NCBI GenBank assembly: GCA_964590105.1
Contig: CAZPYM010000001.1
Location: 302,172-366,171, forward strand
Direction: 5' to 3'
Length of the DNA stretch: 64,000 bases
DNA from: an uncultured Gammaproteobacteria bacterium
Lineage (GTDB): Bacteria; Patescibacteriota; Patescibacteriia; UBA11705; JABHMO01
The translations under genes were made by a program, and so were the position numbers. The number at the start of each line of letters is the position of its first letter. Within the stretch, counting starts at the first letter, position 1. Below are positions 11,063 to 38,591 of the stretch, piece after piece. The notes under the pieces were generated by a model that saw only the letters and a program-made list of their open reading frames with translations, made no database searches and was not told the DNA's origin.

Positions 11063-12013
11063 TTAACCCAAAACAGCGCTGACAAAAACTGAATGACCAT
11101 TCACAAAGTCATTAATGCCGATCTGCCTTTTGCCCTCGAGCTTTACTTCCAGTAAACGCAGAAATCCCTGGCCGCAGGCAACATAATAGCCCCCTTCGAA
11201 CAGAAAAACTTCGCCTATTTTATGGTTTCGCTTCACCTCAATCTGCGCTGGATAACATTTAGTGATGTCCAGTTTTTTTTCATTAAAAAAAGTGTAACTG
11301 CCGGGCCACTCATTGAACGCCCGAGATTGGTTGGCGATTTCGCGCGCTCCCGCCTGCCAATTTATTTTTCCGTCTTCTTTGTAAACTTTGCCAGAGTAGG
11401 TCACTTGATCATCGTCTTGCACCACCAAAGTGATTTTGCCGTTAATATAATCGGGGATAATGTTAATCAACAGGTCAGCGCTAAGCAAGGATAACTTTTG
11501 GGCCAATTCAGTGTAAGAATCGTCATCAAAAATTTCCACAGACTCCTGCGCTACAATGTCGCCGGTATCCATGCCCGGATCCATCAAAATTACAGTTGTG
11601 CCGGTGACTTCATCGCCATGTAATAACGCCGCCTGAATTGGCGAAGCGCCGCGATATTTTGGCAATAATGACGGATGGACGTTCAAACATCCGTGCGTTG
11701 GCAGATCCAAAAACTCCTGCGGAATAATTTTTCCATACGCCGCCACAACGAAAAGTTCCGGCTTTAGCGCTGCCAATTGATCCGCGAATCTTGGATTTTT
11801 TTTCAGTGACAACGGCTGGTGGCAAGGCAATTGATATTGTGTGGCAAAAACTTTTACCGGAGGAGAAACAATTTCGCGATTGCGGCCAGCCGGTTTATCA
11901 ATTTCAGTCACAACTGCCAGAACGTCGAAATGTTTTACCAGTTCAATCAAAATCGGCAAAGAAAATTCCGCCGAACCGAAAAAAACAATTTTTATTTTTG
12001 AGTTATCTTGCAT
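11063..12013 (-). CDS. fmt: methionyl-tRNA formyltransferase
   Basis: KIVFFGSAEFSLPIL...DKPAGRNREIVSPPVK...HGCLNVHPSLLPKYRGASPIQ; it is adjacent to def. Confidence 0.9.
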   Translation of the reverse strand: MQDNSKIKIVFFGSAEFSLPILIELVKHFDVLAVVTEIDKPAGRNREIVSPPVKVFATQYQLPCHQPLSLKKNPRFADQLAALKPELFVVAAYGKIIPQEFLDLPTHGCLNVHPSLLPKYRGASPIQAALLHGDEVTGTTVILMDPGMDTGDIVAQESVEIFDDDSYTELAQKLSLLSADLLINIIPDYINGKITLVVQDDDQVTYSGKVYKEDGKINWQAGAREIANQSRAFNEWPGSYTFFNEKKLDITKCYPAQIEVKRNHKIGEVFLFEGGYYVACGQGFLRLLEVKLEGKRQIGINDFVNGHSVFVSAVLG

Positions 12014-12033: not shown

Positions 12034-12516
12034 TCAAAGCTCTTTTTTTTGATTTTCAGCGCTTTTAATATTTTTTGCCTTATCTATAAAAAGCACGCCA
12101 TTCAGATGATCAACCTCATGATCAATTACTCTGGCAAAAAGTCCGCGCGCTCTAAATTCTATCCTCGCGCCGTCAGCTGAAATGGCTTTTACTTTTAGAC
12201 TTGTATTTCGTTTCACGTCACCATATATTCCCGGCACGCTAAGGCAACCTTCCTCATCAACACACTTGCGCCATGATCGGACTGAAATAACCGGATTAAC
12301 CAGCGCCAAGGGTCCGCTTTTTGTACTAATAATAACTATTCTTACTAATTTTCCTACCTGAGGCGCGGCAAGGCCAATGCCGTCGTTGGCTTTCATTGTT
12401 TCAATCAAATCACAAATGAACCGCTTGTATTTACCGGTTTTTACTTCGTTTATCGCAACGGCTAAGGATTTTTTTCGCAGTTGCGGATCTGGCAGATGTA
12501 ATACCTTTCTAATCAT
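12034..12516 (-). CDS. def: peptide deformylase
   Basis: GIGLAAPQVG, EGCLSVPG and HEVDHLNG motifs. Confidence 0.92.
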   Translation of the reverse strand: MIRKVLHLPDPQLRKKSLAVAINEVKTGKYKRFICDLIETMKANDGIGLAAPQVGKLVRIVIISTKSGPLALVNPVISVRSWRKCVDEEGCLSVPGIYGDVKRNTSLKVKAISADGARIEFRARGLFARVIDHEVDHLNGVLFIDKAKNIKSAENQKKEL

Positions 12517-12565
12517 AACTATTTCGAATTTTATGGAAACTTAAATTAAGGCAATCTTTAGAAAA

Positions 12566-14440
12566 TTATAGCAAATTAACAGGATTTTTGTCAATGGTCC
12601 AGTATTCCGGAACATCGGATATAAAGCGTTTCTCCAATTCTATATTGGACAGGGGAAGGAATACGGCTATCTGGCAGCGATAGCGCTTTCTGACCTTTTG
12701 CAAATAATGCAAATACGGCTCGGTGATTTTGATGTTTTTATCTGAACCCTTGATAAGTTTATCATATAATTCCTGCGCTTCTTTCTGACAAACACCCAGA
12801 TCCTGATGCTGAAAAAATAATTTTATAAGAGTGCAAAATGGGGGATAGCTAAATTGTTTTCTGTCGGCAATTTCTTTTTTGTAAAAATATTCATAGCCCA
12901 AATTTAAACTTTCAAAGGCCAGATTGTCAGCAAAACTGGTTTGGACGATTACTCCCGCGCCACCCGCTCGCCCGATCAATTCTTTTTGGAAGCAATAAAG
13001 ACGAAAATTGGAATTAAAGTCAGCTAGATAAACAAGACTATCCAGGTAAACAAATCCCAGTAAACCAATATTTTCAAAATTTTCTTTTTTTAATGTTTGC
13101 CCGGTGCTAAGTAAGATCCGGCCAGCGTCAGTAAATCTCTTTTTAACCTCGTTACTAATTTGTTCAATGCCGATTCCCATTTTTTTCAGATTGACGCCCC
13201 GACAATTAGGACAGGTTAGAAGCAAATCTTGTTTTTGCCCGCAACGATAACACACTAGATTTTGCCCCTCAATTGTAAATGGCAATTTGCAACTGGGACA
13301 ATTGGCTTCAAATCCGCAATCATCGCAAAAAAGATAGCTGTATTCACCCTTTTTATTGACTATCAGTAAAACTTTATTGTCTTTTTTCTGTTTCAGGGTG
13401 ATATCGATTTCCCGCAATAATTTTTCACTCAAATATGTAAATCCTTTTTTTCGCTCTTCCCGAAGATCAACCAGCTGAACTTGGTTTTTGATCCCCGCGC
13501 CGAGCGTTATCATTTGATATTGATTTTTTTTAGCATTGCAAGCGTCCTCAATCCTGGGGGTTAAAGATGATAAAATTAAATTGCAATTTGTCAACTGCTG
13601 GATTTTTTGCGCCACGTTTACAGCTTCGTAACGGGGAGTCATGTCCCACTGTTTGAAATCTTCTGAATGAGCAGCATCAATAACTATGGTTTGCAAATTT
13701 GATAATGGAGAAAAAACAGCTGATCGCGTGCCAATAATTATAAATTTTTCATTTTTCCTAATCTGGCCCCAGAGTTGAAATGTTTTGTTTTTTCCGTAAT
13801 GAGCGTCAGTGGTTAATGAGGCTGTTTTAACTTGAAGATTTTTAGGCAAAAGCTGGAAAAATTCGTTCACTTTTTGCACTTGGGGAAATAAAATCAATAT
13901 TTGCTTTCTGTCCTTTACTGCATTTGAGCACAATCCCAAATAAAACAATTCTTTGAGCTTGGCATCATGGGGAAACAATAAAGCTTTTTGCCCATTTGAA
14001 CAAAAAAATTGTTCAATGAGAGGCAAAATTTTCGGGTTCTTTACCAACTCAATTCGATTGTCTGAAATCTGTGTTTCTCTCGCAAGAGCGTTCCGCTTTG
14101 GCACGTCCGGAAACAGCATCCTGGCCGTTGCCGCCAGTGAATAGTGATAATATCCGGCAAACCAATTTATCAGCTCCATTTGATAGGGAAGCAATCCGCC
14201 AAGATCGCTGTCGAGACTATCAATCTGTTTGGCCTGCTCAAAATCAGTTTTATTTTTTATTGAATGAACAATTCCCTTAAGCATCTGCTTTTTCCTAAAA
14301 GGAATATTAACAATCGCGCCTGGCATGATTTTTTTTTGCCAGCTATCCGAAGCGTCATCCTCTTTAGGAATATAGTAATCAAAATAATCCATGCCTCTCG
14401 GCAACTTTATCAAAGGAATTATCTGAGCCACTTTCAGCAT
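12566..14440 (-). CDS. priA: primosomal protein N' (PriA)-like, with degenerate ATPase motifs
   Basis: Overall PriA architecture, including the Cys-rich zinc-binding insert (CDDCGFEANCPSCKLPFT...CYRCGQ...CPNCRG). At the Walker A position the sequence is FPHDAKLK instead of GxxGSGKT. The DEEH box reads IVIDAAHSEDFKQ, so DEEH has become DAAH. Confidence 0.75.
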   Translation of the reverse strand: MLKVAQIIPLIKLPRGMDYFDYYIPKEDDASDSWQKKIMPGAIVNIPFRKKQMLKGIVHSIKNKTDFEQAKQIDSLDSDLGGLLPYQMELINWFAGYYHYSLAATARMLFPDVPKRNALARETQISDNRIELVKNPKILPLIEQFFCSNGQKALLFPHDAKLKELFYLGLCSNAVKDRKQILILFPQVQKVNEFFQLLPKNLQVKTASLTTDAHYGKNKTFQLWGQIRKNEKFIIIGTRSAVFSPLSNLQTIVIDAAHSEDFKQWDMTPRYEAVNVAQKIQQLTNCNLILSSLTPRIEDACNAKKNQYQMITLGAGIKNQVQLVDLREERKKGFTYLSEKLLREIDITLKQKKDNKVLLIVNKKGEYSYLFCDDCGFEANCPSCKLPFTIEGQNLVCYRCGQKQDLLLTCPNCRGVNLKKMGIGIEQISNEVKKRFTDAGRILLSTGQTLKKENFENIGLLGFVYLDSLVYLADFNSNFRLYCFQKELIGRAGGAGVIVQTSFADNLAFESLNLGYEYFYKKEIADRKQFSYPPFCTLIKLFFQHQDLGVCQKEAQELYDKLIKGSDKNIKITEPYLHYLQKVRKRYRCQIAVFLPLSNIELEKRFISDVPEYWTIDKNPVNLL

Positions 14441-14525
14441 ATTGCAGATTTATTATATCATCAAAAATCAGAAAACCGAAGCTCTCACTTCGGGTTTTCC
14501 CTGGTAACAACGCCTCGCCTATTCC

Positions 14526-15314
14526 TCAAGCAAATTTCATTTCACCGACCAAGTATCCAACGCCAAACGGGGACTCATAGCTTAGCACTTCAAATTCATA
14601 ACTCATATTTTTCACTGCCCCGAGAAGAATTAAAAATGAACGCAGGCCGCACTCTCCCGCATCCTCAATCACTGCCGGATCCAAATCCAAAATGCCCTGA
14701 ACGCTTTTCTTTTTTAGAAACTGAATCAACTTTTTATCAAAATCCTTGGCGCTCGGAGAAAATCCCGACGGCGCCTGCAGACTTAATCGATGCGAAAGAT
14801 CACCGGAAGCAATAATCGCATATTTTTTGTCTGTTGAAAATATTGCTTCTTTGATCAACTCACCAAATTCCAGGTGTTTAGCATAGCTCAGAAAACTATA
14901 ATTAATCGGAACAATGCGCTGATCCTGCACCTTGCGGGTTAAATAATACAGCGGTACTGCCGCGCCGTGATCTAAATTTTCCTGTAAAATCAATTGCAAG
15001 GGCAATTTTGTTTCATTTTTTCCTTTTAAATGATTAATAAAGCCAAGATCTGACTTAAATGAAAGTTTAGTTTGAAAATCGCCAAAGTCTTCAAAGTTTG
15101 CTGAGTAAATCTGATTAGTATTAATCGTAAAAGCGTTAAAATTAATTTCCCCGTGCGGCGAAATAACTATCAAAGTATCCGGATTTGCCTGGTTTAAATC
15201 TTCCTCCAAAATATCAAAAGCCTGGACTGTTTTTTTCAGTTTTTGTAAATTGTTTTTGCCGATCCGCGGAATGAGAATCGGCGGATGGGGGACAATAGCG
15301 GCGAACGTTAGCAT
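14526..15314 (-). CDS. Memo-like protein (AmmeMemoRadiSam system protein B-like, distant LigB-type fold)
   Basis: Motifs IVPHPPIL, ISPHGE, DHGAAVPLYYL and ASGDLSHRLS line up with the Memo-family PHAGY / EHSxExxLP / SSDLSH motifs. Confidence 0.6.
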   Translation of the reverse strand: MLTFAAIVPHPPILIPRIGKNNLQKLKKTVQAFDILEEDLNQANPDTLIVISPHGEINFNAFTINTNQIYSANFEDFGDFQTKLSFKSDLGFINHLKGKNETKLPLQLILQENLDHGAAVPLYYLTRKVQDQRIVPINYSFLSYAKHLEFGELIKEAIFSTDKKYAIIASGDLSHRLSLQAPSGFSPSAKDFDKKLIQFLKKKSVQGILDLDPAVIEDAGECGLRSFLILLGAVKNMSYEFEVLSYESPFGVGYLVGEMKFA

Positions 15315-21262: not shown

Positions 21263-21395
21263 CGCGGAACGTATAACTTGAGTAAACCCAGTTAATTAGG
21301 TTAATTGGTTAATTAAGTTAATTGGGTAATGAGTAAGCTGACTTTCGATTTTAACTTTTCCCTCTTAACTTTTAACTTTTTGCGTCATACTTGTC

Positions 21396-21429
21396 TGCCT
21401 TTGGCAGAGGCGCATCCGCCTTTGGCGGA
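21396..21429. promoter_or_regulatory. two adjacent mini-hairpins (ctgcc-ttt-ggcag and tccgcc-ttt-ggcgga) in the leader of the WecB/NUDIX gene
   Basis: tctgcctttggcagaggcgcatccgcctttggcggaaac, preceded by gttaatt(a/g)g and ttaactttt tandem repeats at 21300-21380. Confidence 0.4.
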
Positions 21430-21462
21430 AACTTTTCCCTTTTGCCTTTCAACTTTTATCTT

Positions 21463-22662
21463 ATGCCATTTCCACCGGAATTTCAAAACAAAGCAATAAT
21501 CCTCGGCGTTACAATTGATGATCGTCCAATGGATTTTGTATTAAATAAAATTGAACAATTTTTGTGTTCAAATGCTCAGCACTCAATTTTCACGCCAAAT
21601 CCTGAAATTTGCCTGCGAGCAGAAAAAGACGAGGACTATCGCTACACTCTGAACACCGCATCAATCAAGATTCCAGACGGATTTGGTTTGAAGCTCGGCG
21701 CTAAAATCCTCGGTCAAAAACTGGAGAATCGAGTTGCCGGCTCTGATCTGACAAAAAAACTTTTGCACAAATATTCAAATGCAAAAACAGAACTTAAACT
21801 TTTTATTGTCCTTAGAACCGACTCGCTATCAAAGGAAAAAGATATAAAACAAATATTTAGTGCAGATTATCCCAATATCAAATTTAAACTTGGAAATATT
21901 GATATAAAAAAACCTGATGATTGCGACAAATTATTAAACGATATTAATTTATTTGAACCACAAATGCTTTTTGTCTGCCTCGGAGCGCCGACCCAGGAAA
22001 ACTGGATTTATAAATATTTAAAACTAATGCCCAGTGTCAGAGTGGCGCTCGGACTTGGCGGCAGTATTGACTTCCTGACCAACAAAATCAAACGCGCACC
22101 AAAAATAATGCGCGACCTCGGAGTGGAATGGTTTTACCGCCTGTATCAGGAACCGAGCAGATTGAAACGGATAAAGAACGCTACCGCTGATTTTCTGCTT
22201 GCTTGCCACAAATGGAAAAAACGTATTACCAATGAATATCGCCTCAATGTGGTTGCCGTAATAAAAAACCGCCAGGGAAAATTTCTGGTGCAAAAAAATC
22301 CGCGATTCAAAGACCACTGGCAATTTCCGCAGGGCGGATTAAATATTGGCGAAGATCCTGATGCTGCCGTGGTGAGGGAAGCCAGTGAAGAAATCGGCGC
22401 GCCTGAACATTTTTTAAAAGTCATAAAAAAAATCCCAGAATCTCATAATTACGATTGGCCGGAATATGGAAAACTTATAAAAGGCTATAAAGGACAACAA
22501 CAAACAGCGTATTTGCTGGAATATTCAGGCAATGAAACTGACATTGACCTATCAGCCAGCCATGAAGCCGAGGAGATCCGCTGGCTTGATAAACAGGATT
22601 TACTCAAAACAATTCACCGTCATCGTCATGAATTTGCCAAAAAAATCATCAAGCACCTCTAA
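21463..22662 (+). CDS. WecB/TagA/CpsF-family glycosyltransferase fused to a C-terminal NUDIX hydrolase
   Basis: The N-terminal part (ILGVTID...IFTPNPEI...DGFGL...CLGAPTQENWI...GGSIDF) matches the WecB/TagA family. The C-terminus carries the Nudix box GGLNIGEDPDAAVVREASEEIG. I used the ATG at 21463, since the ORF upstream of it covers the hairpin region. Confidence 0.75.
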   Translation: MPFPPEFQNKAIILGVTIDDRPMDFVLNKIEQFLCSNAQHSIFTPNPEICLRAEKDEDYRYTLNTASIKIPDGFGLKLGAKILGQKLENRVAGSDLTKKLLHKYSNAKTELKLFIVLRTDSLSKEKDIKQIFSADYPNIKFKLGNIDIKKPDDCDKLLNDINLFEPQMLFVCLGAPTQENWIYKYLKLMPSVRVALGLGGSIDFLTNKIKRAPKIMRDLGVEWFYRLYQEPSRLKRIKNATADFLLACHKWKKRITNEYRLNVVAVIKNRQGKFLVQKNPRFKDHWQFPQGGLNIGEDPDAAVVREASEEIGAPEHFLKVIKKIPESHNYDWPEYGKLIKGYKGQQQTAYLLEYSGNETDIDLSASHEAEEIRWLDKQDLLKTIHRHRHEFAKKIIKHL

Positions 22663-23627: not shown

Positions 23628-23669
23628 TTTAAAAGAAAAGAGCTGTATGTTAGATGCAACATACAGCTC
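23628..23669 (-). terminator. rho-independent terminator downstream of the high-GC 317-aa gene
   Basis: A perfect 12-bp inverted repeat gagctgtatgtt-agatgc-aacatacagctc, followed on the minus strand by ttttctttt. Confidence 0.6.
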
Positions 23670-23734
23670 AATTTGCTTGGAATTTTTTGGGACTGAAACG
23701 TCCCTGGTGGGAGAGAAAGGAAGGAGGGGTGAGG

Positions 23735-24685
23735 CTAGCGGTCGCGGCGGGCGTTCTTGCCGTCGCGCTTCCAGCCCTTCTTGTCGCGCTGACCGATCCG
23801 CTTCTGAAGCTCGTCAACCTTGGCCTGGCCGAGATACTCAGCCAGGGTGCAGGTCGCGGCCTGGCGCTTCTGCTGTCCCTCGCGCTCCTTCTCAGCGAGA
23901 TACTCGGCCTCCTTCGGACCGAAGAACATCTTGTAGCGCAGGAGCCCGAGGTAGGCGTCGCTCGAGTTGAGCGAGACCTCGTACTCCTCGCCACGCGCGT
24001 TGCGGTTCTTGCTCGCGATCGACGTGAAGATGTCGACATCCGACTCGAGCACATACGCCCCGTACGATCCGAACTTGCCGAAACGCCGCGTGACGAGGCG
24101 AAGCCCCTTCACGTGGGGCACGCCGCCGTTGCCGTTCGTGCTCTGCTCGCGGCAGAATCCACGCTCCCACTCGAAGAATTCCGAGGGGTTGGAGGGCGCC
24201 GTATCCTTCAGGCCGGCGGCATACGCCACCTCGAAGGCCTCGGTCCGCTCGGAGCACCGCTCGATGTTCTCGATGGGCGCCGTACCGACGATCGGCTTCA
24301 TCAGCCCGAAACCGGCCCGAACGAGCTTCGGCATCGGGGTCCAGACGGATCCCTCACCGAACCGGTCGGTGACCAGCTTGGCGTACTGTTCCTTCTTCTC
24401 CGCATCCTTGTCCGCCGCCGCCTGATAGGCGACAATCGCATCACAGAGCTCCATCTTCTGGAAGCGCCCTCCGGCGACCCGCAGAGACTCCATGACCTTC
24501 TGCGCCGCTTCCGGCGTCAGGAGCAGATAGTCGTCGTCCACTCGGATAACGACCGCCTTGGAAATCGGCCTCACCTCGAGACCGCCCTCGCGCTCCAGGA
24601 CGGTGATGTCCTTGGGAACACCGGGAGTGGGGATCGAGCCGCCAAACTCCGCCACGAATGCCTTGAAACCAACGATCGTTTTCAT
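23735..24685 (-). CDS. hypothetical protein (317 aa) with foreign codon usage (GC ~65%, GC3 near 100%) and a C-terminal Lys/Arg-rich tail
   Basis: RBS ggagga 6 nt upstream of the ATG at 24685 (MKTIVGFKAFVAEFGG...). Amino-acid composition is balanced, and the protein ends ...QRDKKGWKRDGKNARRDR. The long plus-strand ORF over the same region is L/R/A-rich antisense junk. Confidence 0.6.
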   Translation of the reverse strand: MKTIVGFKAFVAEFGGSIPTPGVPKDITVLEREGGLEVRPISKAVVIRVDDDYLLLTPEAAQKVMESLRVAGGRFQKMELCDAIVAYQAAADKDAEKKEQYAKLVTDRFGEGSVWTPMPKLVRAGFGLMKPIVGTAPIENIERCSERTEAFEVAYAAGLKDTAPSNPSEFFEWERGFCREQSTNGNGGVPHVKGLRLVTRRFGKFGSYGAYVLESDVDIFTSIASKNRNARGEEYEVSLNSSDAYLGLLRYKMFFGPKEAEYLAEKEREGQQKRQAATCTLAEYLGQAKVDELQKRIGQRDKKGWKRDGKNARRDR

Positions 24686-25041
24686 CACTTTCCTCCAGTT
24701 AGTTGTAAAAGATACTTCCTCATCCAACAGCACAATTCTTATCTCAAGTCCTTGTTGCGATAAAAACTGTGCTGTCAAATAATAACAAATTTTACACGAT
24801 ATATAACAGGGAAGTATAGCATACATCAAATATTTTGTCAAGAGGTGTTATTTGAAGTTTTATTATTACACTAAAATTAGACAAACAAACAAGTTACACC
24901 TAAGTAACATTTCAGAGGTTATTAACTGTTTACAATACGCATAATTTGAGCTATAATTTTGGGGAAGCTGAAAAAGAAGCACTTTGTTATTTCCGCTTTA
25001 TTGTTTGTGATTTGTTATTTGTAATTTATTATTATCCATTT

Positions 25042-28383: not shown

Positions 28384-31300
28384 TTATTTTACCACTGCCA
28401 TCCAGTCAGCTTCGGTTGAAGGAAACTTGCCGTTCGCAGTTTTGAAATCCTTGACTGCTTGCAATCTTTCAACCGATGTTTTGGCCTTGCTGGCCGCTGT
28501 ACTGCCGTATGAGATGAAAGTTACAACATTCCAGCCCTCTGCATCCGGAGATTGGCCGGCGAGAGCGATATAATCATTTACAGCTGTGATTTCATTTTTC
28601 AGGTCTCTGTCAGCACTCACTGGCAAAGCTGGCACTGCGTTATCTTTTGGCGCTTCTACAACTGGCGCTGCTGGTACTGTCTCAACTGGCGCTGGTGCCG
28701 GAGCTGTCATAGAAACACCTGCATAAGCAATTCCGCGCAATACAGACCACATGAAACCGGTATTTGGCATTTGCTTGAATGATTTAGAGAAGGTTGCTAA
28801 AGCAGTCTTTTCCTTAGCCAATTCACGCGCTTCAGGTCGCAGATAGTAGGCGACAGAGTGGATAAACTTTTCTTCAGCCGGTTTGCTAAAATCAACCAAT
28901 CGGCCGAACACCTTTACAAAAGCTTTCAAAGCTTCTGCCTCGCGTCCGATTATTCTAGCGGGAGTTGTTCCTTCAGCCATCTTGGCCACGCTCTCCCAAT
29001 CAGAATCAGTACTGGGGATATGATTGTAAACAGCTTTATAATCTTCAAGCAATCCCACTCTTTCACGTTCCGCCATTTTCTTGACTTTATCAGTTGTTCC
29101 ATAAGTCAGGAAATCTACAACTCGCCATTCATTGGCCGTAGCCGGACTCTTGCCGACAAGTTTAGCATAATCTTTTACGCCTTGAATTTCCTTCTTAAGT
29201 TCTCTTGCCGCCGGTTTTACCGGCACCACATTTGTCAGGGTAACGACTTCTGAAGCAACTTCCTTGGAAACTTCTTTAACTTCTGTTTTGACAACCGTAG
29301 TTATTTCTTCCACTGTTGTCGTGACTGCTTCATCCGTGGTCGTTGTGGTAGTTGTTGTCGGTTCTATTATCGTCGTTGTAGTGGTTGTCGCGGCCGCTCC
29401 GCCGGTGGTATCAACCGCGCGCCGTGTTGTTGTAGCGGATGCCGCGACTAGAGGCGGATGAGTGATTGAAACCGAGGTCAAGTGAGTAATCTTTCCCATG
29501 CAATAATTTTCAGTCGTGTTGCAGGTTTGATTATCAAGCGGCATAAACGAGTCAGTCGTATCATCGTAATATGACAATGTGAGCAAAGATTCATCGGTTA
29601 CGCCCGCGCTTGTTAATTCAGCGGCCGTATAGTGGAGAATAATCTCAGCGCCTTCTCCGTTCAATTGGTTCACATCCTCACCTCCGGCTTTGGCTGTAAT
29701 TTCAACTTCAGTCCCGACTAAAGGCAACGTTGTATCGAGCGCCGGCAAGTCCACCTGCTGAAAGGTCAACGTGCCGCTAGAATTCTGCCCACCGATAACT
29801 CCGGTGCCGGCGCTAATTTCAAGACCGGTGTTATTTGCGTCGTTTACTACTACACCGCTCGTTGGAACAATCGTTCTGCTATCAACGCTTTTTATATCTG
29901 TCGGATCAGATGTCAACGTGATGTCCTTGTTGCTGAGCGAACTACCACTAACCGCGACAGTGGCCGATCGCGTTGTTTCAGCGTGCAATGGGCCATCCGC
30001 AATCACTGACCATGTGCCATCTGTTACTGATAACTGGTAGCTACCATCTTGCTGAATTGATCCCTTGGCTTTTGCTCCAGTAGTCGCCTCGGTGGCGTAG
30101 ACAAATCCGCCAAGATTCATAGGCGTTGATCCGTCAGATTCGTAAATCGTGCCTGAAATTGAATTGCCTTTTTCAACCAAATCATTGTCAATCTGAATAT
30201 CTTCGTCTGTGGTATTGCCATCAAAATCAAAATTTACATTTCCCGTAACCTCCAAGTTTGAATATTTTGCCGGCGTGCCGTAATCCTTGTGTTCGGCTTT
30301 AATGCTGTATGTGCCTTCTTTGACACTCATTGAATAGTCGCCGCTGGCGTCCGTGGTTGTTTGCTTTACCAATCCCGTTGTTTCATTAATAAGCAAAACC
30401 GCGGCATTGGCTATGGGATTATTGGAATTGTCAAGAACTGTGCCTAAAACCGTGCGCATTGTCTGCGCCGAAAGATCAACAGTGGTACTTTGATTTGAAG
30501 TTGACAAATCAATTGTTGAAGACGGCGAAAAATCTCCCATGCCGTCAACAAACACCATCAATCTATATGTTCCGGCAGGAACGCTGATAGTCTGGCTCTG
30601 GCTCAAATCGGGAAGCGGCATGCCTCGGCGCACAGCTCCACGGCTGTTGGTCGTGGCTGACCCGGCTATTTCCTTTACTTCTATAAACCCGCGCATATTT
30701 GAAGTTCCGCCGGTAAAAGCGACTGTCAATGTTTTCAAACTTGCCAAATCATAACTGATATTCACGGTTTGATTGCCTCCGTTTACAGTAACATTTTGTC
30801 CTAGTTCTCCGTAATCAGGCGACCACATTGACACTCTGTATGTACCGTTGCCGGCTTTGATTGAATAAGAACCGTCATTGGCCGTTGATTCATTGCGATG
30901 GTATCCTCCGCTCGGCCAGTCATTAACCGTATCCCAGGCTTCTACCATTATCGGAACACTACCCTGTGCTGTACCGCCGATTGAAACGGAGCCGGAAATG
31001 GTGTAGCAGGTGGAAGATGTCGGCTGAAGATTTTCAGTCGGCTTATTCGCGCCCGAAACTGTAATAGCCTTGGTAATTGTGCCACAAGTATCAGTTCCCG
31101 ATGGCATTTGCGCCGTCACTGTCCAAGTGCCGTCGCCAACATTCAGCATATAGTCGCCGTCCGAATCCGACATTGTTTGCGCAGACTGGTGCGTCGTTGT
31201 TTCGTTTGCCATTACGCTGGTGTAGTTGAGAGGATTGCCGCTCAAATCCATTACTTTTCCTGAAATCATGTAGTCGGCTTTATACATTTTGATTAAGAAC

Positions 31301-34300
31301 GGAGCGGCGGTAGTAACATAATCGCCTTCAAGATTAACATCGCAAGTGGTATTGCCGTCGGAAACCCCAACCGTATTATCCTTTACTGCTACCGACCTAA
31401 ACGGAGCCTCACCGATTCCGGGTTTATGAGCTCCGATTTCATAATTTCCATTGGCCGCGACTTTGAGAACAAAACTGCCGTCCGCGAGGGATTGCGTATG
31501 AGAGCCCATGCCACCGAAACCCATTGGCTGGCTGGCCCAAATTTCAACATTTTGCATTACATTATACACTTTCGCGCCAGAAGAAAAAGCTTGATTCATG
31601 CCGTTTACCAATTGAACTGTCGCGCCGCTGATTGACAATATTTTATCATTTTTTGTGTTCGTGCCGTCAGTCACAACTATTGAATCATTGGCATTAAATC
31701 CCGTGCCACTCGCCAAAGTCAGGCTGGTCGCGCTCGAAGTGTAATTCGCGCCGAGCGTAGTTTCCTTTGACACAACGCATCCGAGTATTTCTTTACTAGC
31801 GCTATTGATGTTAAAACTTAATTCAGTAATTGTTGCATTCGTATCATTGCGCTTAATAATTGGAGTTCCGCCAATACCGCTGACTTCAACCTGAACATTT
31901 GTCGGCGGCATCCAATCAGGCATCGGAGGCGGTCCCATCATCGGCCCCTTTGGCATAGCCGGCCCAATGCCAACCATATATATGCCGTTGGAAGGGAAGT
32001 ATAGAGTGGAACTGTTATTAGTGACTGCGCCGGTCAAAGTAGTGGTATTTACCGCGAACGAATTAGGCCCGCCCGCGAAAATATCAAGATCTTCTCCGTC
32101 AGCGCTGAATGTCCCGGACACCTTGACTGTCAATGATGCTGAATTGGACGCTGAAAATTTAGCGAAGGTTAGCGCTCTCGTCAAAGTCTTTGTTCCCGAA
32201 TTCCAGTTTTCGCCCGAACCGGGCACACAAATTGGTTCCGGATTCATCTGTCCGCTGTATTTATTTGCGCCAAGAGTAACCGTCGGCTCGCTAAAAATAT
32301 TATAACAGCCATCCGGCAAATTTGACCAAGTCTGCGTTCCCGTGCCATTGGCAATGTTAACTGTCGCGTCCAAAGGACCGGTCATGGGAGATCCCATCAT
32401 CAATTGAAAAGTGCCGGTGCCGCTTTCAGCCGCGATTGTCGCCGTGATATTATTTGCTCCGGCCGCGTTGATAAAGAAAGGCATTGAAGTCATGCTGGAC
32501 ACGTTCGTGCCGTCCGCTTTGTACGCTTTCATGTCAACGGTGTAGCCATTGGAATTGAAATCCTGAACTTTTGTCGGATTGACGATGTTTTTCACTTCAA
32601 AATGAAAGTAATCAGGATCGCCGGTTTGTCCGCCGTTCGTATTCAGCCACAGAGTCATTGTCTGACCTGAAACCGTCACGCCGTCGCTCGCCGCGCCGCC
32701 CTTTGTCGCGGCGCCCGCGCCGTCGTCAGCAACTCCCGAAGTCTTGAATTTGACTATTGACGGACCGCTCATATTCAGATCATTTTTATTGGGATTATAC
32801 GGATCCGGAATCGCCGAAACAATGTTAACGCCTTTTGGAAATGTCAATTTAATATATGCTCCGTCGTCAAGCGCATTGGCTGATTTGCCCGATGGCGGAA
32901 TAGGGAAGTCAATCATGTATGTGGTCGTAGCGCCGGCCATCATATTCATGGGCATGGCTCCGACTCCTCCCATCATCATGGCGTCTTTTTCTGAAAAACC
33001 TCCAAATCCTGTAGGCGCGCCCGTCATCATGGCGCCGCCCATGGCCGAAGGACCGGAAAGTCCGCCGCAAGCGGGTCCGATCATACCGCCTGTTTTCGCC
33101 TCATCGCGCAAAACTCCCTTGGCGGAATTAGCCGTAGCGTCAATTGGATTATTCGACAGATCCATAACATTTGAAACAGTAATAATAAATTGATCTGTTT
33201 CTTTTGTCGCACCGGTGAAGGATAGACCCTTAATTTTGACGGTGTTTGTTTCATAATCATAATCAAACGACACGCCGGCCGCTCCAAGATTTTCAGTACT
33301 ACCGGTGCCGTCGGCGCCAAAAGTCAATGCGTAGTTGCCCGACTTCAGTACGCTCCCTGTCCAAAGCGAAGCATTGGACGAGGCGTCACTTTGCTTCAAC
33401 GCGCTCATTGGTCTTGAGAATGTCACCGCGCACTGGTATCCGTCGCAATTCGCGACTTCAACTCTGGGCTTGGTTGTGTCAAATGTAGACGTCATGGTAA
33501 ACGAGCGCGTCAAAGTGGTTGCTCCGCTCGGATTACCATACAAGTCTTTTATTCCACTTGTGCCGCCAAGAGTAATAGTCAAGGTATATTTCATACCCGG
33601 CGTCAAGCCGGTTGTCGGGATTACCTTGATACTCTGGCTCATTGAATCATATTTTACTACGGCCGGAATTGTTGACGTTCCGGTTTTCAATGTAACGGTG
33701 GCCGTGTTAACATTACCCGGTTCCAGCGATTCATTGAAACCAATATCCACGAAGCCGAAATCCAATGGCACTCCCGTGGCATTATTGTCCGGCCAACTGC
33801 CATTAATGCCGGGAGCAGTTGAATCAGTAACGTCCGCGACTGTAAAATTGACCATAAATTGATTGGCTCCGGGATCGTTTGGATTGCCAAGCGTTACACC
33901 CGAAGACGCTCGGATTCCCGCCTTTACCCTTATTTCATACTCGCCGGCCATTAAATTTGAAGACAAATTCATTATGGCGAAAAGCTTATCGTTCGAGGTT
34001 GTCACTGAACTTATATAAGTACTGGTAACATCTGTAAAAGAATTACCGCTTTTTTGAAATAACTTGAATGTGCCCGTGTTAACGCTACTTGAATCAAGCG
34101 ATTCGCTGAATTCAAACATCATTTTTGACAAATTTTTTGATACACTCCACGCGCCCGACGACGGCTGCGCGCCTTTCACAAAGAAAGGAGAATAGTCTCC
34201 GCCGCTCCATTGGCCTGTAGTCGTGTTAAAATTATCCGCCATTGTCATATAATCAGCATTATCGGTCATAGATCCAAAATTACCGGCATCATAATATGCG

Positions 34301-37056
34301 GCATCTTCCGTAAAGCCAAATCCGCTGGAGCCGCTAAAATTCATATCGGTTGACTGCGTAGTGAAAGTGAACGAATGTCCTCCTCCCGGCCTGCCGCCCT
34401 GAACTGAATTGCCGGCCATATCTATAACAGCAGGAAGGATTTCCACAATATATTGCGTGTTCTTAACCAAAGGCTCCACCATATCAATTACCGCCACCGG
34501 GGTACTGACAGATGCACCAGGCGCGTAGAAAGTGGCGCCGCGATTGCTGGCTCCGAGACCGGTGTCAATTGTTACGGCGTAATTAGTAACGGGTTCAACT
34601 TGTCCCGTAAAGTTATTCATTTTTTTCAACAATATATTTGACGTAGTCAGTTTTCCCACGTTCATTGGTTTATTAAATCTAATAAATATAGGTGCTCTGT
34701 CAATCACTATGTCGATCGGCGCGCTGTTCATGCCGTCCGATGGAGTAGTTTCTATAACCATAGGCGCGCTGGAATCTCCGCCATGAGCCCCTACGCCGCT
34801 ATCTAGACAAAACTGCCAGCCGGTTGACTGCGGATTATTACTGCTGACGCCAACTCCCCAAATTGTACTTTCATGATAACCTCCCGCATTCGCGCTCAAA
34901 TTCCAAACGCCGTCAAACACGCCGTTTAGCGTGAATGTTCCGGCTTGATCGCTGACAATGGAGGTAACGGCGCTAATGCCAGTACCTTCAATTCTAACGG
35001 TTGCGCCGTCAATGCCAGTCACGCAATCGCTTTGGTATACGCGGCCGGAAATTTTTCTAGCTCCGCTGGTCGTTGAGACATTAATATGATATGGCATGGC
35101 TTGGGCCAGCACTTCCGTATTTGCCACGGGATCCGCGGCCGAATATCCTTCTTCGCTCATGCCGTCAACCGCCTTAATATAATAATCTATTCCTGCCGCG
35201 GTTACCGCTGACGCAGGTATTGTGAATATTGTACTTGAACCTGAAGAACTTCCGGAAACACAGCTTCCCGGCCAACCGGCTGTGCCGGCCTTGTAGCATA
35301 GTGTAGTAGTAATCTGTTGCGAAGTGCTTTCAACATCATATATTTCAGCCAGAAGTTTAATTTCAGTTGAAACCACAGCCGTGGAAATCGGGCTGTGCAT
35401 AACATGAGGTGGAGTGTTTAAGTGCGTTTCGCCGCCCAGTTGAAAAACCTCTACGCCGCTAGTTGATTTTTGAGGATCTGACAAAGTGCGCGAAACAAAA
35501 TCATACATATTATCATTGCTATTATAACCATTTCCGATTGCCACGTCTGAAGTAACCATAGTCGCACTTGTTGATGAATATACCGCTTTTCGTTCAATAC
35601 TGCCGTTTGCCAAGGGCGCAGGGTTGAACGGACTGGTTTGATAAACCCTGACCCCATGTCCGACGCCCACGATATCCCTTACCGTATTATTTTCATCAAT
35701 TAAAAATATTGTATTACCGGAATCCAAATCTACTCCTGTAAACGCAGCGTCAGCACTCAGGCCTTGCCCATCAACGCTCTGGTCAAAACTATTAGCGTCA
35801 TTAGCCAATAAATAATATCCGCCTTGCGCCATAGTAGTCCCGCCTGCGATCGTAGCCAAAACAGTGTATGTATTGTCAACTCCTTCTATACCAGGCAGAT
35901 CTGTCAAGACGGCAACTTTCCAGCCGGCGATGGATTGCGGGCTCAATCCAATATTGTAAAGCTCAATGAATTCATCCGTTGCAGCGGCGCCGGCCAATTG
36001 AATTTCAGAAATCAGAATGCTGGTGTTCGGCCACATCCAAAACAAAGGAGCCGGATCGCTATACGGCATGCCGTTGGCAACGCTTTTTGGCGCAATCGAG
36101 GGATTGGTGCTTATTTGCAGGCTATCGGTCATAGTCATTGAAATCCTGGCGCCGGCATGCGCGACCACGGAAACTCTGCTAGGATCACTGCCATCGCGAG
36201 TCGCCCTGATTATTGACTGATTATCGTTTGCACCTGTCATTAAAGTATACCGAGCGCAACTTCCGGGGGTGACTTCTTCGTCGCATTCCACCGAATCCGC
36301 GGTTACTGGCATATTAAAATCAATTATTAAATCTCTATATGACCCATAATACAAGCCATCCACTCTAGGCGGCGACATATAAGTGTCTCCGTCTCCGCCG
36401 CCGCCGGCGCTATTTATCGTATCCGTGCTAACCTGCGTGATCGTCGGGGAAGTGCCGCTGGTAACAACCGTGCCGCTCGCGCCGCCTAAGAAAGTAAATC
36501 GAAATGATTTTCCGGAGGGCGGAGTGTCGTGCATTTTCATGTGAAGAAAATAATTGCCGCTACCCGCTGAATATGAAGTTGGCAATGTGTCATCAACAAC
36601 GTCAAGAGTAACATCATAAGTGCCGTCGCCATTGTTTGTCCATGAAGGCTTTGTTTCCCAAACAAGAACGCTGTCTCCGGAGCCGGGATCCATCCAGCCA
36701 TTACCATTACCGTCTTTATAAATGCATAGTCCCTGATCATCACTGCCGGCCGCCGCCGCTTCATTAAACGGCGCCAATACCAAAGCCGGATCAGGAGTGC
36801 CATAGAGACCGTCAAAACGAACTTTAATTGATTTTAGCTGCTCGCCGGCAGTACCGGTAATCTTCAACGCGGCAACACTGCTCATGAAACCGCCATATGC
36901 ATTCATGTTTGGCGGAATCATAAACTCCGAAGTTACTGTTACACCAGCTTGAGCCGGAAATAGGGGAGTGAGCACGCCGGCCAATCCCATGGCCCAGACT
37001 ATGGTGGTCATGGCGATAAAGCCAGTAAATAATTTATTTTTTGCGATTTTCATCAT
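28384..37056 (-). CDS. giant secreted surface protein (2890 aa) with Ig-like/carboxypeptidase-regulatory-like beta domains, Met/Gly/Pro-rich low-complexity segments, a poly-Thr linker and two C-terminal ~75-aa tandem repeats
   Basis: A single uninterrupted ORF. Signal peptide MMKIAKNKLFTGFIAMTTIVWAMGLAGVL. Many G/T/S/N-rich beta-type repeats (e.g. GRVYQSDCVTGIDGATVRIEGTG). Low-complexity segments GPACGGLSGPSAMGGAMMTGAPTGFGG...MMMGGVGAMPMNMMAGA and MPKGPMMGPPPMPDWMPP, and a TTTTTTIIEPTTTTTTTT linker. The C-terminal repeats are (V/N)KDYAKLVGKSPATANEWRVVDFLTYG and VNDYIALAGQSPDAEGWNVVTFISYG. Confidence 0.85.
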   Translation of the reverse strand: MMKIAKNKLFTGFIAMTTIVWAMGLAGVLTPLFPAQAGVTVTSEFMIPPNMNAYGGFMSSVAALKITGTAGEQLKSIKVRFDGLYGTPDPALVLAPFNEAAAAGSDDQGLCIYKDGNGNGWMDPGSGDSVLVWETKPSWTNNGDGTYDVTLDVVDDTLPTSYSAGSGNYFLHMKMHDTPPSGKSFRFTFLGGASGTVVTSGTSPTITQVSTDTINSAGGGGDGDTYMSPPRVDGLYYGSYRDLIIDFNMPVTADSVECDEEVTPGSCARYTLMTGANDNQSIIRATRDGSDPSRVSVVAHAGARISMTMTDSLQISTNPSIAPKSVANGMPYSDPAPLFWMWPNTSILISEIQLAGAAATDEFIELYNIGLSPQSIAGWKVAVLTDLPGIEGVDNTYTVLATIAGGTTMAQGGYYLLANDANSFDQSVDGQGLSADAAFTGVDLDSGNTIFLIDENNTVRDIVGVGHGVRVYQTSPFNPAPLANGSIERKAVYSSTSATMVTSDVAIGNGYNSNDNMYDFVSRTLSDPQKSTSGVEVFQLGGETHLNTPPHVMHSPISTAVVSTEIKLLAEIYDVESTSQQITTTLCYKAGTAGWPGSCVSGSSSGSSTIFTIPASAVTAAGIDYYIKAVDGMSEEGYSAADPVANTEVLAQAMPYHINVSTTSGARKISGRVYQSDCVTGIDGATVRIEGTGISAVTSIVSDQAGTFTLNGVFDGVWNLSANAGGYHESTIWGVGVSSNNPQSTGWQFCLDSGVGAHGGDSSAPMVIETTPSDGMNSAPIDIVIDRAPIFIRFNKPMNVGKLTTSNILLKKMNNFTGQVEPVTNYAVTIDTGLGASNRGATFYAPGASVSTPVAVIDMVEPLVKNTQYIVEILPAVIDMAGNSVQGGRPGGGHSFTFTTQSTDMNFSGSSGFGFTEDAAYYDAGNFGSMTDNADYMTMADNFNTTTGQWSGGDYSPFFVKGAQPSSGAWSVSKNLSKMMFEFSESLDSSSVNTGTFKLFQKSGNSFTDVTSTYISSVTTSNDKLFAIMNLSSNLMAGEYEIRVKAGIRASSGVTLGNPNDPGANQFMVNFTVADVTDSTAPGINGSWPDNNATGVPLDFGFVDIGFNESLEPGNVNTATVTLKTGTSTIPAVVKYDSMSQSIKVIPTTGLTPGMKYTLTITLGGTSGIKDLYGNPSGATTLTRSFTMTSTFDTTKPRVEVANCDGYQCAVTFSRPMSALKQSDASSNASLWTGSVLKSGNYALTFGADGTGSTENLGAAGVSFDYDYETNTVKIKGLSFTGATKETDQFIITVSNVMDLSNNPIDATANSAKGVLRDEAKTGGMIGPACGGLSGPSAMGGAMMTGAPTGFGGFSEKDAMMMGGVGAMPMNMMAGATTTYMIDFPIPPSGKSANALDDGAYIKLTFPKGVNIVSAIPDPYNPNKNDLNMSGPSIVKFKTSGVADDGAGAATKGGAASDGVTVSGQTMTLWLNTNGGQTGDPDYFHFEVKNIVNPTKVQDFNSNGYTVDMKAYKADGTNVSSMTSMPFFINAAGANNITATIAAESGTGTFQLMMGSPMTGPLDATVNIANGTGTQTWSNLPDGCYNIFSEPTVTLGANKYSGQMNPEPICVPGSGENWNSGTKTLTRALTFAKFSASNSASLTVKVSGTFSADGEDLDIFAGGPNSFAVNTTTLTGAVTNNSSTLYFPSNGIYMVGIGPAMPKGPMMGPPPMPDWMPPTNVQVEVSGIGGTPIIKRNDTNATITELSFNINSASKEILGCVVSKETTLGANYTSSATSLTLASGTGFNANDSIVVTDGTNTKNDKILSISGATVQLVNGMNQAFSSGAKVYNVMQNVEIWASQPMGFGGMGSHTQSLADGSFVLKVAANGNYEIGAHKPGIGEAPFRSVAVKDNTVGVSDGNTTCDVNLEGDYVTTAAPFLIKMYKADYMISGKVMDLSGNPLNYTSVMANETTTHQSAQTMSDSDGDYMLNVGDGTWTVTAQMPSGTDTCGTITKAITVSGANKPTENLQPTSSTCYTISGSVSIGGTAQGSVPIMVEAWDTVNDWPSGGYHRNESTANDGSYSIKAGNGTYRVSMWSPDYGELGQNVTVNGGNQTVNISYDLASLKTLTVAFTGGTSNMRGFIEVKEIAGSATTNSRGAVRRGMPLPDLSQSQTISVPAGTYRLMVFVDGMGDFSPSSTIDLSTSNQSTTVDLSAQTMRTVLGTVLDNSNNPIANAAVLLINETTGLVKQTTTDASGDYSMSVKEGTYSIKAEHKDYGTPAKYSNLEVTGNVNFDFDGNTTDEDIQIDNDLVEKGNSISGTIYESDGSTPMNLGGFVYATEATTGAKAKGSIQQDGSYQLSVTDGTWSVIADGPLHAETTRSATVAVSGSSLSNKDITLTSDPTDIKSVDSRTIVPTSGVVVNDANNTGLEISAGTGVIGGQNSSGTLTFQQVDLPALDTTLPLVGTEVEITAKAGGEDVNQLNGEGAEIILHYTAAELTSAGVTDESLLTLSYYDDTTDSFMPLDNQTCNTTENYCMGKITHLTSVSITHPPLVAASATTTRRAVDTTGGAAATTTTTTIIEPTTTTTTTTDEAVTTTVEEITTVVKTEVKEVSKEVASEVVTLTNVVPVKPAARELKKEIQGVKDYAKLVGKSPATANEWRVVDFLTYGTTDKVKKMAERERVGLLEDYKAVYNHIPSTDSDWESVAKMAEGTTPARIIGREAEALKAFVKVFGRLVDFSKPAEEKFIHSVAYYLRPEARELAKEKTALATFSKSFKQMPNTGFMWSVLRGIAYAGVSMTAPAPAPVETVPAAPVVEAPKDNAVPALPVSADRDLKNEITAVNDYIALAGQSPDAEGWNVVTFISYGSTAASKAKTSVERLQAVKDFKTANGKFPSTEADWMAVVK

Positions 37057-37177
37057 ACTAAATTTCTTAATTTTAATTTTTAGTTTTACTTTCTATATAT
37101 GTTAATTGATTGTTTTTTGCAAGAAAGACAAATTTACAAATATTACAAATTCTTCAGCTACTTAATTTTCTAATTGC

Positions 37178-37192: not shown

Positions 37193-37204
37193 ACAGGTAT
37201 TTAC

Positions 37205-37613: not shown

Positions 37614-38591
37614 CTAATCATTGTCGCTATGACATTTTTCATAAACATCGCGCAATTTTTTATTGGTCACATGCGTGTAAATTTGGGTAGTGGAAATATC
37701 TTCATGGCCCAGAAATTCCTGCACCAGGCGTAAATCAACGCCCTTGTTCAGCAAATCCGTGGCAAATGAATGGCGCAGGGTATGCGGCGTTGTATTAAGG
37801 GGCAATCCGGCAAGCTTGACATACTTTTTTACGATTCTTTCAACTGAACGAGAAGTTAGTCTGCGCGAACCGATTTCTGACGCAGTAGGGGAGTAATTTA
37901 TGAATAAGGCTTTATCAACATCATTTCGATTATCTAGATAATTCCTAATTGCCGAAAGCGCCCGCAAAGAAAAATATATTGTTCTGGTTTTGCTTCCCTT
38001 GCCCACGATATTTAATTCCAAAACTTGTCTAAAATTTCTAATATTAAAGTCATCGCGATTTAATTTCACAACTTCTGAGACACGGAGTCCTGTTGAAAAT
38101 AATGTTTCAAGAATCGCTTTATTGCGAAGCGAATTTAAATCTAATTTTACTGCGCAATCAAGTAATTTTTTTACTTTTTCAAGAGTAAGAAAATGCACGG
38201 ACGGTTTTTTTGTTTGTTTTGCAAGCTGGATCTTGCTGGCGGGCAGGGCCGTGATATCGCGCACCGCAAAATATTCCAATAGCCCGCGCAGAGCGATTAA
38301 ATAAATATTTTGCGTTCTTTTTGTCAAACTTTGTTTTGTTTTTGCTGATAAAGTTTTGCGCGACAAAAAAATTCTGTATTTCCAGATTATTTCGCTGGTG
38401 AGCTGATGGGGGAGCAAATCTTGCATTTTATTTTGGATAAGCCAACGCTTGAAGCGATCTAAACATCGGGAATAATTTTCCTGCGTTTGTTTTGCCAAGC
38501 CTTTTTCTACGTCAACATAATCAAGAAAATCATTGATTTGTTTGAGAATGGGAAGTTGAGAGTTGGTGAGCATAAATACAAGAAATAACAA
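37614..38591 (-). CDS. tyrosine recombinase, XerC/XerD family
   Basis: N-terminal SAM-like domain, and the C-terminal catalytic region HTLRHSFATDLLNKGVDLRLVQEFLGHEDISTTQIYTHV (R..H..R..Y). Confidence 0.85.
   Translation of the reverse strand: MLFLVFMLTNSQLPILKQINDFLDYVDVEKGLAKQTQENYSRCLDRFKRWLIQNKMQDLLPHQLTSEIIWKYRIFLSRKTLSAKTKQSLTKRTQNIYLIALRGLLEYFAVRDITALPASKIQLAKQTKKPSVHFLTLEKVKKLLDCAVKLDLNSLRNKAILETLFSTGLRVSEVVKLNRDDFNIRNFRQVLELNIVGKGSKTRTIYFSLRALSAIRNYLDNRNDVDKALFINYSPTASEIGSRRLTSRSVERIVKKYVKLAGLPLNTTPHTLRHSFATDLLNKGVDLRLVQEFLGHEDISTTQIYTHVTNKKLRDVYEKCHSDND

Follow-up and report, generated by a model that had tools for sequence, protein, structure and literature searches.

A Walker-A-less PriA, a probable pseudohelicase, in a genome of the candidate phyla radiation

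The subject of this report is a priA gene in a stretch of 64,000 nucleotides from an uncultured member of the Patescibacteria, or candidate phyla radiation (CPR) (contig CAZPYM010000001.1, positions 302,172 to 366,171). The whole of this 64-kb stretch is referred to below as the window, and all positions are those of the window. The gene is an open reading frame (ORF) on the minus strand at 12566..14440, the end of which takes in the stop codon, and it encodes a protein of 624 amino acids in one unbroken frame. We conclude that this protein is probably the bona fide priA ortholog of the genome, and that it represents a PriA pseudohelicase, a form of PriA without Walker A which, judging from its motifs, is almost certainly ATPase-dead, i.e. 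can no longer bind and hydrolyse ATP. The ATPase-less state is ancient and is common to a very large clade of PriAs from the CPR. The most satisfactory reading of these results, and one we consider probable, is that the protein is an ATP-independent pseudohelicase which recognises forks and nucleates primosomes.

The assignment to PriA is secure at the levels of both profile and fold. The TIGR00595 equivalog profile (PriA, primosomal protein N′) scores the protein at 254.5 bits, passing its cutoff of 230.35, and the match starts at profile position 13, directly past the missing P-loop. Two Pfam families score above threshold, namely PriA_3primeBD (PF17764, E = 4.8e-13) and PriA_C (PF18074, 33 bits, cutoff 26.9). 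The match to DEAD falls below its cutoff, and Helicase_C and PriA_CRR gave no Pfam match in the protein. In a phmmer search of the solved structures, Escherichia coli PriA came out on top (6dcr, E = 1.3e-44; 8fak, E = 1.8e-44). An AlphaFold2 model, built from a 25-sequence alignment, has a mean pLDDT of 87.9 and a pTM of 0.88, and when this model was compared with the PDB by Foldseek, ranks 1–9 were all PriA. The best fold match was 8fak_H, fork-bound E. coli PriA (TM 0.79, E = 1e-42), followed by 6dcr; the next family was Mfd, with an E value of 7e-9 and a TM of 0.36. The model predicts a PriA-like fold for both RecA-like lobes, for the cysteine-rich region (CRR) that binds zinc, and for the 3′-end-binding (3′BD) and C-terminal (CTD) domains. 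The order of these parts (3′BD, lobe 1, lobe 2 with an eight-cysteine insert, CTD) is that of canonical PriA (TIGR00595; 4NL4, 6DGD, 8FAK), and the Cys4-Cys4 insert (C372...C413) and the C-terminal domain (Pfam PriA_C), which a first, sequence-only reading of this DNA had attributed to the protein, are indeed present. A misalignment or gene-calling artefact was also considered and dropped; the N-terminus agrees with those of homologs, and a separate fragment with 100% identity (P0160) is present in public data.

The motifs required for ATP hydrolysis are the parts of PriA that are missing. Where canonical PriA has GxxGxGKT, the former Walker A motif (motif I; 13949..13972, minus strand, as are all features of the gene described below) reads PHDAKLKE, residues 157–164, and only K163, the equivalent of E. 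coli K230, is kept. The former Walker B motif (motif II; 13667..13678) reads DAAH instead of DEEH at residues 255–258, within IVIDAAHSEDFKQ (residues 252–264). In the phmmer alignments with E. coli PriA (6dcr/8fak), LLAGVTGSGKTEVYL is paired with LLFPHDAKLKELFYL and VIDEEH with VIDAAH, and the MAFFT alignments concur. Thus, the two substitutions named by the sequence-only reading, FPHDAKLK (residues 156–163) at the position of GxxGSGKT and DAAH for DEEH, are borne out by phmmer, by MAFFT and by translation of the respective segments. The same reading would have been refuted by intact GKT and DExH motifs elsewhere in the sequence, but a regular-expression scan of the whole protein for GK[ST], [AG]xxxxGK and DExH/D/Q found none of them, and no P-loop-like string was found elsewhere when all Walker-A-less relatives were scanned. 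In the AlphaFold2 model a strand spans residues 152–157 and a helix begins at residue 160, leaving a two-residue turn at the P-loop site, so that the glycine-rich phosphate-binding loop of five to six residues appears to have been replaced by a tight turn.

The losses extend further than had been noted at first. The equivalent of motif III (13553..13573) is aligned as LSSLTPR, in which the SAT of the canonical GSATP has become SLT. The former motif V (13091..13117) reads ILLSTGQTL for ILxGTQMxxKG, with GTQM changed to STGQ, and at the former motif VI (KELIGRAGGA, 12956..12985) the G[RK]xxR arginine motif is gone: the canonical QxxGRxGR is represented by IGRAGGAG, without the conserved GRxGR. 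The part of helicase lobe 2 that leads from the zinc insert to motif V carries a deletion of ∼25–30 residues relative to canonical PriA (alignment columns 700–730), with its junction at D438/A439 (13124..13129); across it, phmmer steps from E. coli residue 502 to 531 while the query advances from 436 to 438. Finally, the circularly permuted winged-helix domain between the 3′BD and the helicase core is absent, with ∼100–150 alignment columns missing. This last absence does not separate the degenerate from the canonical form, since canonical CPR PriAs (e.g. P0033) are also without the domain. The best sequence match, E. coli PriA with its winged-helix deleted (6DCR), resembles the query in this respect but, unlike the query, has a fully active helicase core. 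Relative to canonical PriA, therefore, the protein is without motif I, the catalytic glutamate of motif II and motif VI, has no winged-helix domain and has a shorter lobe 2.

In contrast to these elements, the parts of PriA that contact DNA are retained. Conservation was assessed in a clade of 25 members (39–60% identity), among which 49 positions are invariant, and is given as the mean frequency of the majority residue. In the 3′BD (residues 1–111; 14108..14440), the pocket residues D21, Y22 and K71 are intact and invariant in the clade; they are equivalent to Asp17, Tyr18 and Lys61, which form the 3′-end pocket in E. coli PriA (PMC5778457). Y22, G41 and K71 are invariant even when canonical PriAs are included, and the equivalent of E. 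coli G37 is R49 in the query and is thus not kept. Motif Ia (LILFPQV, 13877..13897; LFPQV as against the canonical LVPEI) has a conservation of 0.78 in the alignment, and the DNA-contacting motif Ib (IIIGTRSAVF, 13712..13741) one of 0.84, with G237 and R239 invariant in the clade and R239 invariant against canonical PriAs as well. The equivalent of the aromatic-rich loop (ARL), identified by alignment and translation as SEDFKQWDMTPRY (13628..13666), is also conserved at 0.84, and D266, P269 and Y271 are invariant. Its K263, R270 and Y271 correspond in the phmmer alignment to E. coli K328, R334 and Y335, which are located at the fork junction (PMC5175346). Motif IV (VLLIVNKKGE, 13343..13372; canonical LFLNRRG) is retained, with a conservation of 0.82 for VNKKG and with V361, N362 and G365 invariant, and a block past motif V, YxDSLxYLADFN, likewise scores 0.82.

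The zinc and C-terminal elements are kept in the same way. Translation and alignments place the CRR at 13202..13327, where four CxxC pairs make up two predicted zinc sites, and neither alignment shows any variation at the eight cysteines (C372, C375, C381, C384, C397, C400, C410 and C413). The CTD (PriA_C, S10-like; residues 516–624, 12569..12895) is confidently modelled and has R527, P533, P534, R584, R588, Q590, W614 and D617 invariant in the clade. The 3′-end pocket residues, motif Ib, motif IV and the ARL elements are all shared with canonical PriA. The nucleic-acid-contacting elements Ia, Ib, ARL and IV are in fact the most conserved stretches in the clade, and the least conserved parts are the former motif I (0.42) and the former motif VI (0.41), which resemble the linker (0.39), with the former motif V at 0.59. 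At the level of sequence, the DNA-binding prerequisites for a scaffold role are in place.

The degenerate state is not peculiar to this genome. The nearest database proteins (P0001–P0025, 39–59% identical to the query and 600–650 amino acids long) are labelled Kuenenbacteria, Falkowbacteria or Parcubacteria; none has a precomputed DEAD or Helicase_C domain, and all are without the P-loop. Motif II takes the forms DAAH, DDSH, DDAH, DNAH, DSAE and similar, with a clade consensus of DDAH, so that the catalytic glutamate is alanine in the query and aspartate in the consensus; individually, D255 is kept in 92% of members and H258 in 72%, and positions 256 and 257 are D in 64% and A in 80%. The sharing of the substitutions by sister orthologs, which the sequence-only reading had proposed as a check, is thus observed. 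When 1.84 billion cluster representatives were searched with a profile and motifs were extracted, 138 full-length clusters (50% identity) closest to the clade were obtained, and Walker A is absent from 113 of their representatives and present in 25. We also scanned one genome per species in GTDB, which gave 227 loci, and kept 80 of them. These comprise 51 Walker-A-less and 29 canonical loci, and their labels are all CPR lineages or obviously mislabelled metagenome-assembled genomes (MAGs).

The loss of motif I is tightly coupled to that of motif VI. Among 218 relatives, G[RK]xxR is present in all 54 that have Walker A and in none of the 164 that do not. If ATPase function has genuinely been lost, the phosphate loop and the arginine motif are expected to disappear together in this way. 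The proposal of the sequence-only reading that this is an ATPase-dead PriA is therefore supported by the absence of the P-loop, of the catalytic glutamate and of the motif VI arginines, and by their joint behaviour across the family. In a neighbour-joining (NJ) tree calculated without the ATPase-motif columns, one clade takes in 158 of the 170 degenerate sequences and the Fitch minimum is four state changes, which suggests one ancient loss and a few smaller ones. The tree gives no more than a rough picture: these sequences evolve fast, and long-branch attraction between them could fuse separate losses into one or exaggerate monophyly.

Two further observations concern individual relatives. A subclass of the Walker-A-less form (loci L033, L038, L040, L042, L048, L049, L050, L054, L060, L062, L065 and L072) has xHNLQSEKHDLY at motif I and DDEH or DEEH at motif II, and keeps the GTQM of motif V but has lost motif VI. 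Some of the MAGs with this type share the phylum label Moraniibacteriota with MAGs that have a canonical PriA beside def-fmt, and no assembly among the 80 GTDB loci combines this type with a canonical PriA. The second observation is that the public gene call for P0016 (548 amino acids) is N-terminally truncated (locus L084, 2780-3000); the homolog is full length, because the in-frame sequence upstream encodes the missing 3′BD (MLKIAKIIPYKKLPRGMDYLDY...).

If the protein acts as a fork-recognising pseudohelicase, abandoned forks or D-loops would be recognised in a structure-specific manner and without ATP, via the retained 3′-OH pocket (D21, Y22, K71). The 3′BD would sit on the nascent leading-strand end, and the junction and the lagging-strand template would be occupied by lobe 1 and the CTD together with the ARL and the CRR. 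Contacts with the DNA would be made by the CRR, the CTD and helicase motifs Ia, Ib and IV and, at the fork junction, by the ARL. DnaB reloading would then be nucleated without translocation or unwinding, either directly, as in Deinococcus, or via a lineage-specific adaptor. In the empty nucleotide site, K163 and D255, formerly the Walker lysine and the Walker B aspartate, may pair and so lock the site, and it is possible from the sequence that such a salt bridge stabilises it. Clearing of the lagging strand would either come from another helicase or be unnecessary. A candidate source of unwinding beside a non-unwinding PriA is encoded in the window at 55360-58332 on the minus strand, where a UvrD/Rep-type helicase of 990 amino acids is fused to a PD-(D/E)XK nuclease (AddA-like).

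Several points weigh against this reading. The loss of ATPase activity is read from motifs and from a predicted model. In E. coli, both the ARL and the CRR are linked with the coupling of the helicase, so that their retention here needs another rationale, for which DNA or partner binding is plausible. Among 182 degenerate sequences, the Walker-lysine column is K or R in 134 and the first aspartate of motif II is kept in 142; with this column basic and this aspartate kept, residual nucleotide binding is formally possible. In addition, a second, unmapped nucleotide site has been proposed for E. coli PriA (PMC5778457). The search for a second, canonical priA was confined to the window. Of the partner proteins, neither DnaB, nor any loader, nor SSB was found in the window, and because of this we can only infer the DnaB-reloading step from precedent.

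The genomic position of the gene bears on the strongest of the alternatives, which is that the protein is a PriA paralog that has diverged and taken on another function, such as fork or DNA-end binding apart from DnaB reloading, or that it is a partner of a canonical PriA encoded elsewhere. Directly downstream of priA, and on the same strand, are def (peptide deformylase; 12034..12516, Pfam Pep_deformylase, E = 1.2e-42) and fmt (methionyl-tRNA formyltransferase; 11063..12013, Pfam Formyl_trans_N and Formyl_trans_C), both of which keep their positions in relatives. The priA-def-fmt order is presumably shared with Firmicutes. The upstream neighbour, also on the minus strand, is a LigB/Memo-like gene (14526..15314, identified by Pfam), which is found upstream of priA in L001, L003, L084 and L085 as well as in most GTDB loci. 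The full order in the window, ClpB (16810-19431), a gene of 456 amino acids, the LigB/Memo-like gene, priA, def, fmt and a convergent Wzy_C gene, is matched in the same four loci (around P0001, P0003, P0016 and P0023), and a short contig that starts at priA (L086, P0121) shows the priA-def-fmt and Wzy_C part only. Among the GTDB loci with enough downstream sequence, def-fmt directly follows PriA on the same strand in 34 degenerate and 22 canonical CPR cases. The query clade thus occupies the exact slot before def-fmt that canonical CPR PriAs occupy in other genomes, and the occurrence of degenerate and canonical forms in one chromosomal slot of different genomes marks them as orthologs rather than as two paralogs.

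Further evidence points the same way. An hmmsearch of all ORFs in the window found the query as the only PriA-like ORF, no assembly among the 80 GTDB loci contains both a canonical and a degenerate PriA, and in JAJYKZ01, which alone contributes two loci, both are canonical. The PriA-specific DNA-recognition elements are all retained, and CPR genomes are small, with few paralogs. Some room is left for a paralog by the restriction of the search to 64 kb and by the xHNLQSEKHDLY subclass. At the 11 loci of this subclass with enough downstream sequence, def-fmt does not come next, in contrast to the query clade and to canonical CPR PriAs, so that the priA slot is not universal for degenerate forms. 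The grouping of nearly all degenerate sequences in one NJ clade is also how an old paralog would look. On balance, we regard a paralog as unlikely, if still worth bearing in mind.

We next consider selection on the gene. For the query itself, whose closest full-length relative is 59% identical, synonymous sites would be saturated, and the ratios of non-synonymous to synonymous substitution (dN/dS, NG86) were therefore calculated for two pairs of clade members. For L085/L086 (84% amino acid identity), dN/dS is 0.079 for priA (dN 0.098, dS 1.23), 0.088 for def and 0.091 for fmt; for L012/L084 (81% identity) the corresponding values are 0.148, 0.194 and 0.130. Split by domain, L085/L086 gave 0.108 for the 3′BD, 0.186 for the linker, 0.061 for lobe 1, 0.086 for lobe 2 and 0.073 for the CTD. 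The former helicase lobes are no less constrained than the rest of the protein. Every domain with a usable estimate is below 0.2; in the CRR, which has 47 codons, dS is saturated and there is no value. Purifying selection on priA is as strong as that on def and fmt, the dead helicase lobes included.

Such constraint on the dead lobes (dN/dS 0.06–0.09) would also be expected if the protein were a non-canonical NTPase or helicase, which used K163, D255 and H258, or the second nucleotide site suggested for E. coli PriA (PMC5778457), and still remodelled forks. The persistence of these three residues in the clade, where K163 is K in 84% and R in a further 8% of members and the two motif II positions are kept as described above, may be counted in its favour, as may the basic Walker-lysine column in the wider set. 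The glycine-rich loop, however, is found nowhere in the protein, the model has only a short turn at its site, the catalytic glutamate is replaced, and the motif VI arginines are absent from all 164 degenerate sequences. Motif III departs from the canonical form, and ∼25 residues of lobe 2 are missing. K230R alone kills the activity of the E. coli protein, and the far milder changes in Deinococcus PriA already give zero ATPase. Moreover, conservation in the protein is poorest in the stretches where motifs I and VI used to be, which is the opposite of what is seen in an active site. We therefore consider this alternative improbable, and more so than a paralog. The last alternative, a decaying gene in which pseudogenisation is under way after loss of function, would account for the missing catalytic motifs and the missing stretch of lobe 2, but can be dismissed in view of the uninterrupted PriA-length frames (∼600–700 amino acids) in all 83 fetched loci, the invariant positions of the clade, dN/dS values indistinguishable from those of def and fmt in the same genome pairs, the conserved priA-def-fmt position and the confident AlphaFold2 model. 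Thus, of the two consequences offered by the sequence-only reading, ongoing pseudogenisation is rejected and a structural or scaffolding role survives, with precedents in D. radiodurans and in the E. coli priA300 allele.

The closest precedent for an ATP-independent PriA pseudohelicase is the PriA of Deinococcus radiodurans. This protein has a Walker A motif with a K to R change and a Walker B motif that is off consensus, and shows no measurable ATPase or helicase activity; it binds single-stranded DNA with a Kd of ∼215 nM and forks with a Kd of ∼108 nM, and forms a complex with DnaB (PMC4504706). The term ‘pseudohelicase’ was coined for it by Lopper, Boone and Morrow in 2015 (PMC4504706), and it is the only natural ATPase-dead PriA to have been described before; according to a review of replication restart from 2017, bacteria have kept the helicase activity of PriA ‘except in Deinococcus’ (PMC5778457). 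The features that go with the term, descent from PriA with non-consensus Walker A and B motifs and upkeep by selection, are found in the query. Both proteins are PriA orthologs retained in the genome, with presumed roles in fork binding and helicase reloading, and in both cases homologs of PriB and DnaT are not evident. By analogy, the query would be expected to have no ATPase or helicase activity and yet to bind single-stranded DNA, forks and DnaB.

There are also clear differences between the two. PriAs of Deinococcus-Thermus keep a recognisable P-loop, with K to R in GKT, whereas in the query the entire glycine-rich loop is gone; in addition, the query has lost motif VI, has altered motifs III and V, carries the lobe 2 deletion and has no winged-helix. 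Deinococcus PriA has been tested biochemically and comes from another phylum, and the query is described here from its sequence and a model. Because canonical PriAs occur inside the CPR and the lesion differs (Deinococcus being compared by its published description), the loss in the CPR is most likely independent of that in Deinococcus. The query thus represents a new case of a known phenomenon, most likely of separate origin and more extreme than the one before, and not a new kind of system.

The second precedent comes from E. coli. The K230R protein (priA300) is dead as an ATPase, helicase and translocase, but behaves almost like the wild type in vivo and supports restart in assays; its defects are limited to the PriA-PriC route, Mu transposition and some further contexts (PMC5778457). 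K230R and the K230A and K230D variants show that an ATPase-dead PriA can still build primosomes and restart replication via the PriA-PriB pathway, and in this way they supply the functional logic for a PriA that is only a scaffold. Unlike the query, these variants were made in the laboratory by point mutation and have a helicase core that is intact in other respects, and they depend on PriB and DnaT, neither of which is known in the CPR. Their failures in the PriA-PriC route and with Mu represent a cost which the CPR lineage must tolerate or bypass.

We found no description of PriA in the Patescibacteria, CPR or candidate phyla radiation in the open-access literature, and to our knowledge an ATPase-dead PriA from the CPR has not been described before. 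Set against the lone Deinococcus exception of the review, it would be a second, apparently independent loss, larger and more radical, and spread over dozens of CPR lineages. It gives support from natural history to the idea, derived from priA300, that fork recognition and primosome nucleation are indispensable and unwinding is not. Taken together, the results allow a broader reading, on which our judgement is evenly balanced, in which a major part of the CPR (113 of the 138 closest clusters; 158 of 170 degenerate sequences in one NJ clade) would restart replication with a long-standing, nucleotide-free PriA that clamps forks. Its dead lobes, which remain under strong constraint (dN/dS ∼0.06–0.09), would serve purely as a scaffold for the DNA junction and for partners, with the K163–D255 pair in place of the nucleotide. 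If this is true, the universal, selectable function of PriA is structure recognition and primosome nucleation, and helicase activity is an optional addition, given up by a large part of the bacteria, possibly together with every helicase-dependent restart route.

There are practical consequences as well. These proteins provide a ready set of minimal PriAs, ∼620 amino acids long, winged-helix-less and ATP-free, with which the hand-over of forks to DnaB could be dissected without PriB, DnaT or ATP. Annotation pipelines will label them ‘replication restart helicase PriA’, although a helicase function is very unlikely, and reconstructions of CPR metabolism or of the CPR replisome should not count a degenerate PriA as an active helicase.

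Some features of expression can be read from the flanks of the gene. A perfect sigma-70 consensus promoter on the minus strand (12565-12594), with TTGACA, a spacing of 18 nt, TATAAT and a TG element, lies inside the final codons of priA and precedes the def start codon by ∼49 nt; its location suggests that transcription of def-fmt independent of priA is possible. At the other end (minus strand), a terminator-like hairpin (14493..14476) follows the LigB/Memo-like gene in the region 14452-14493, and an extended -10-like element, TGATATAAT, lies at 14460..14452, 11 nt before the priA ATG. No Shine-Dalgarno sequence is visible before this ATG, and the priA mRNA may be nearly leaderless.

The remainder of the window contains a few further points of note. 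No Rfam family reached its gathering score in positions 1-64000, and there was thus no match to a tRNA, rRNA, riboswitch or leader, even though several aminoacyl-tRNA synthetase and housekeeping genes are present. An ORF of 2890 amino acids with Big_5, CarboxypepD_reg and lamin-tail domains (28384..37056, minus strand) is located in a stretch with a GC content of 0.46–0.49, as against 0.37–0.40 for most of the window, and adjoins a tyrosine recombinase/integrase gene at 37614..38591 (region 28384-38591); it may be a horizontally acquired giant surface protein. Another GC-richer stretch carries two ORFs of ∼369 amino acids that overlap almost completely on opposite strands, at 23654..24763 (plus) and 23735..24841 (minus); of the pair only the plus-strand ORF was scanned against Pfam, and it gave no match. 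Finally, an ORF on the plus strand at 21391-22662 encodes a WecG/TagA-type glycosyltransferase domain fused to a NUDIX hydrolase domain.

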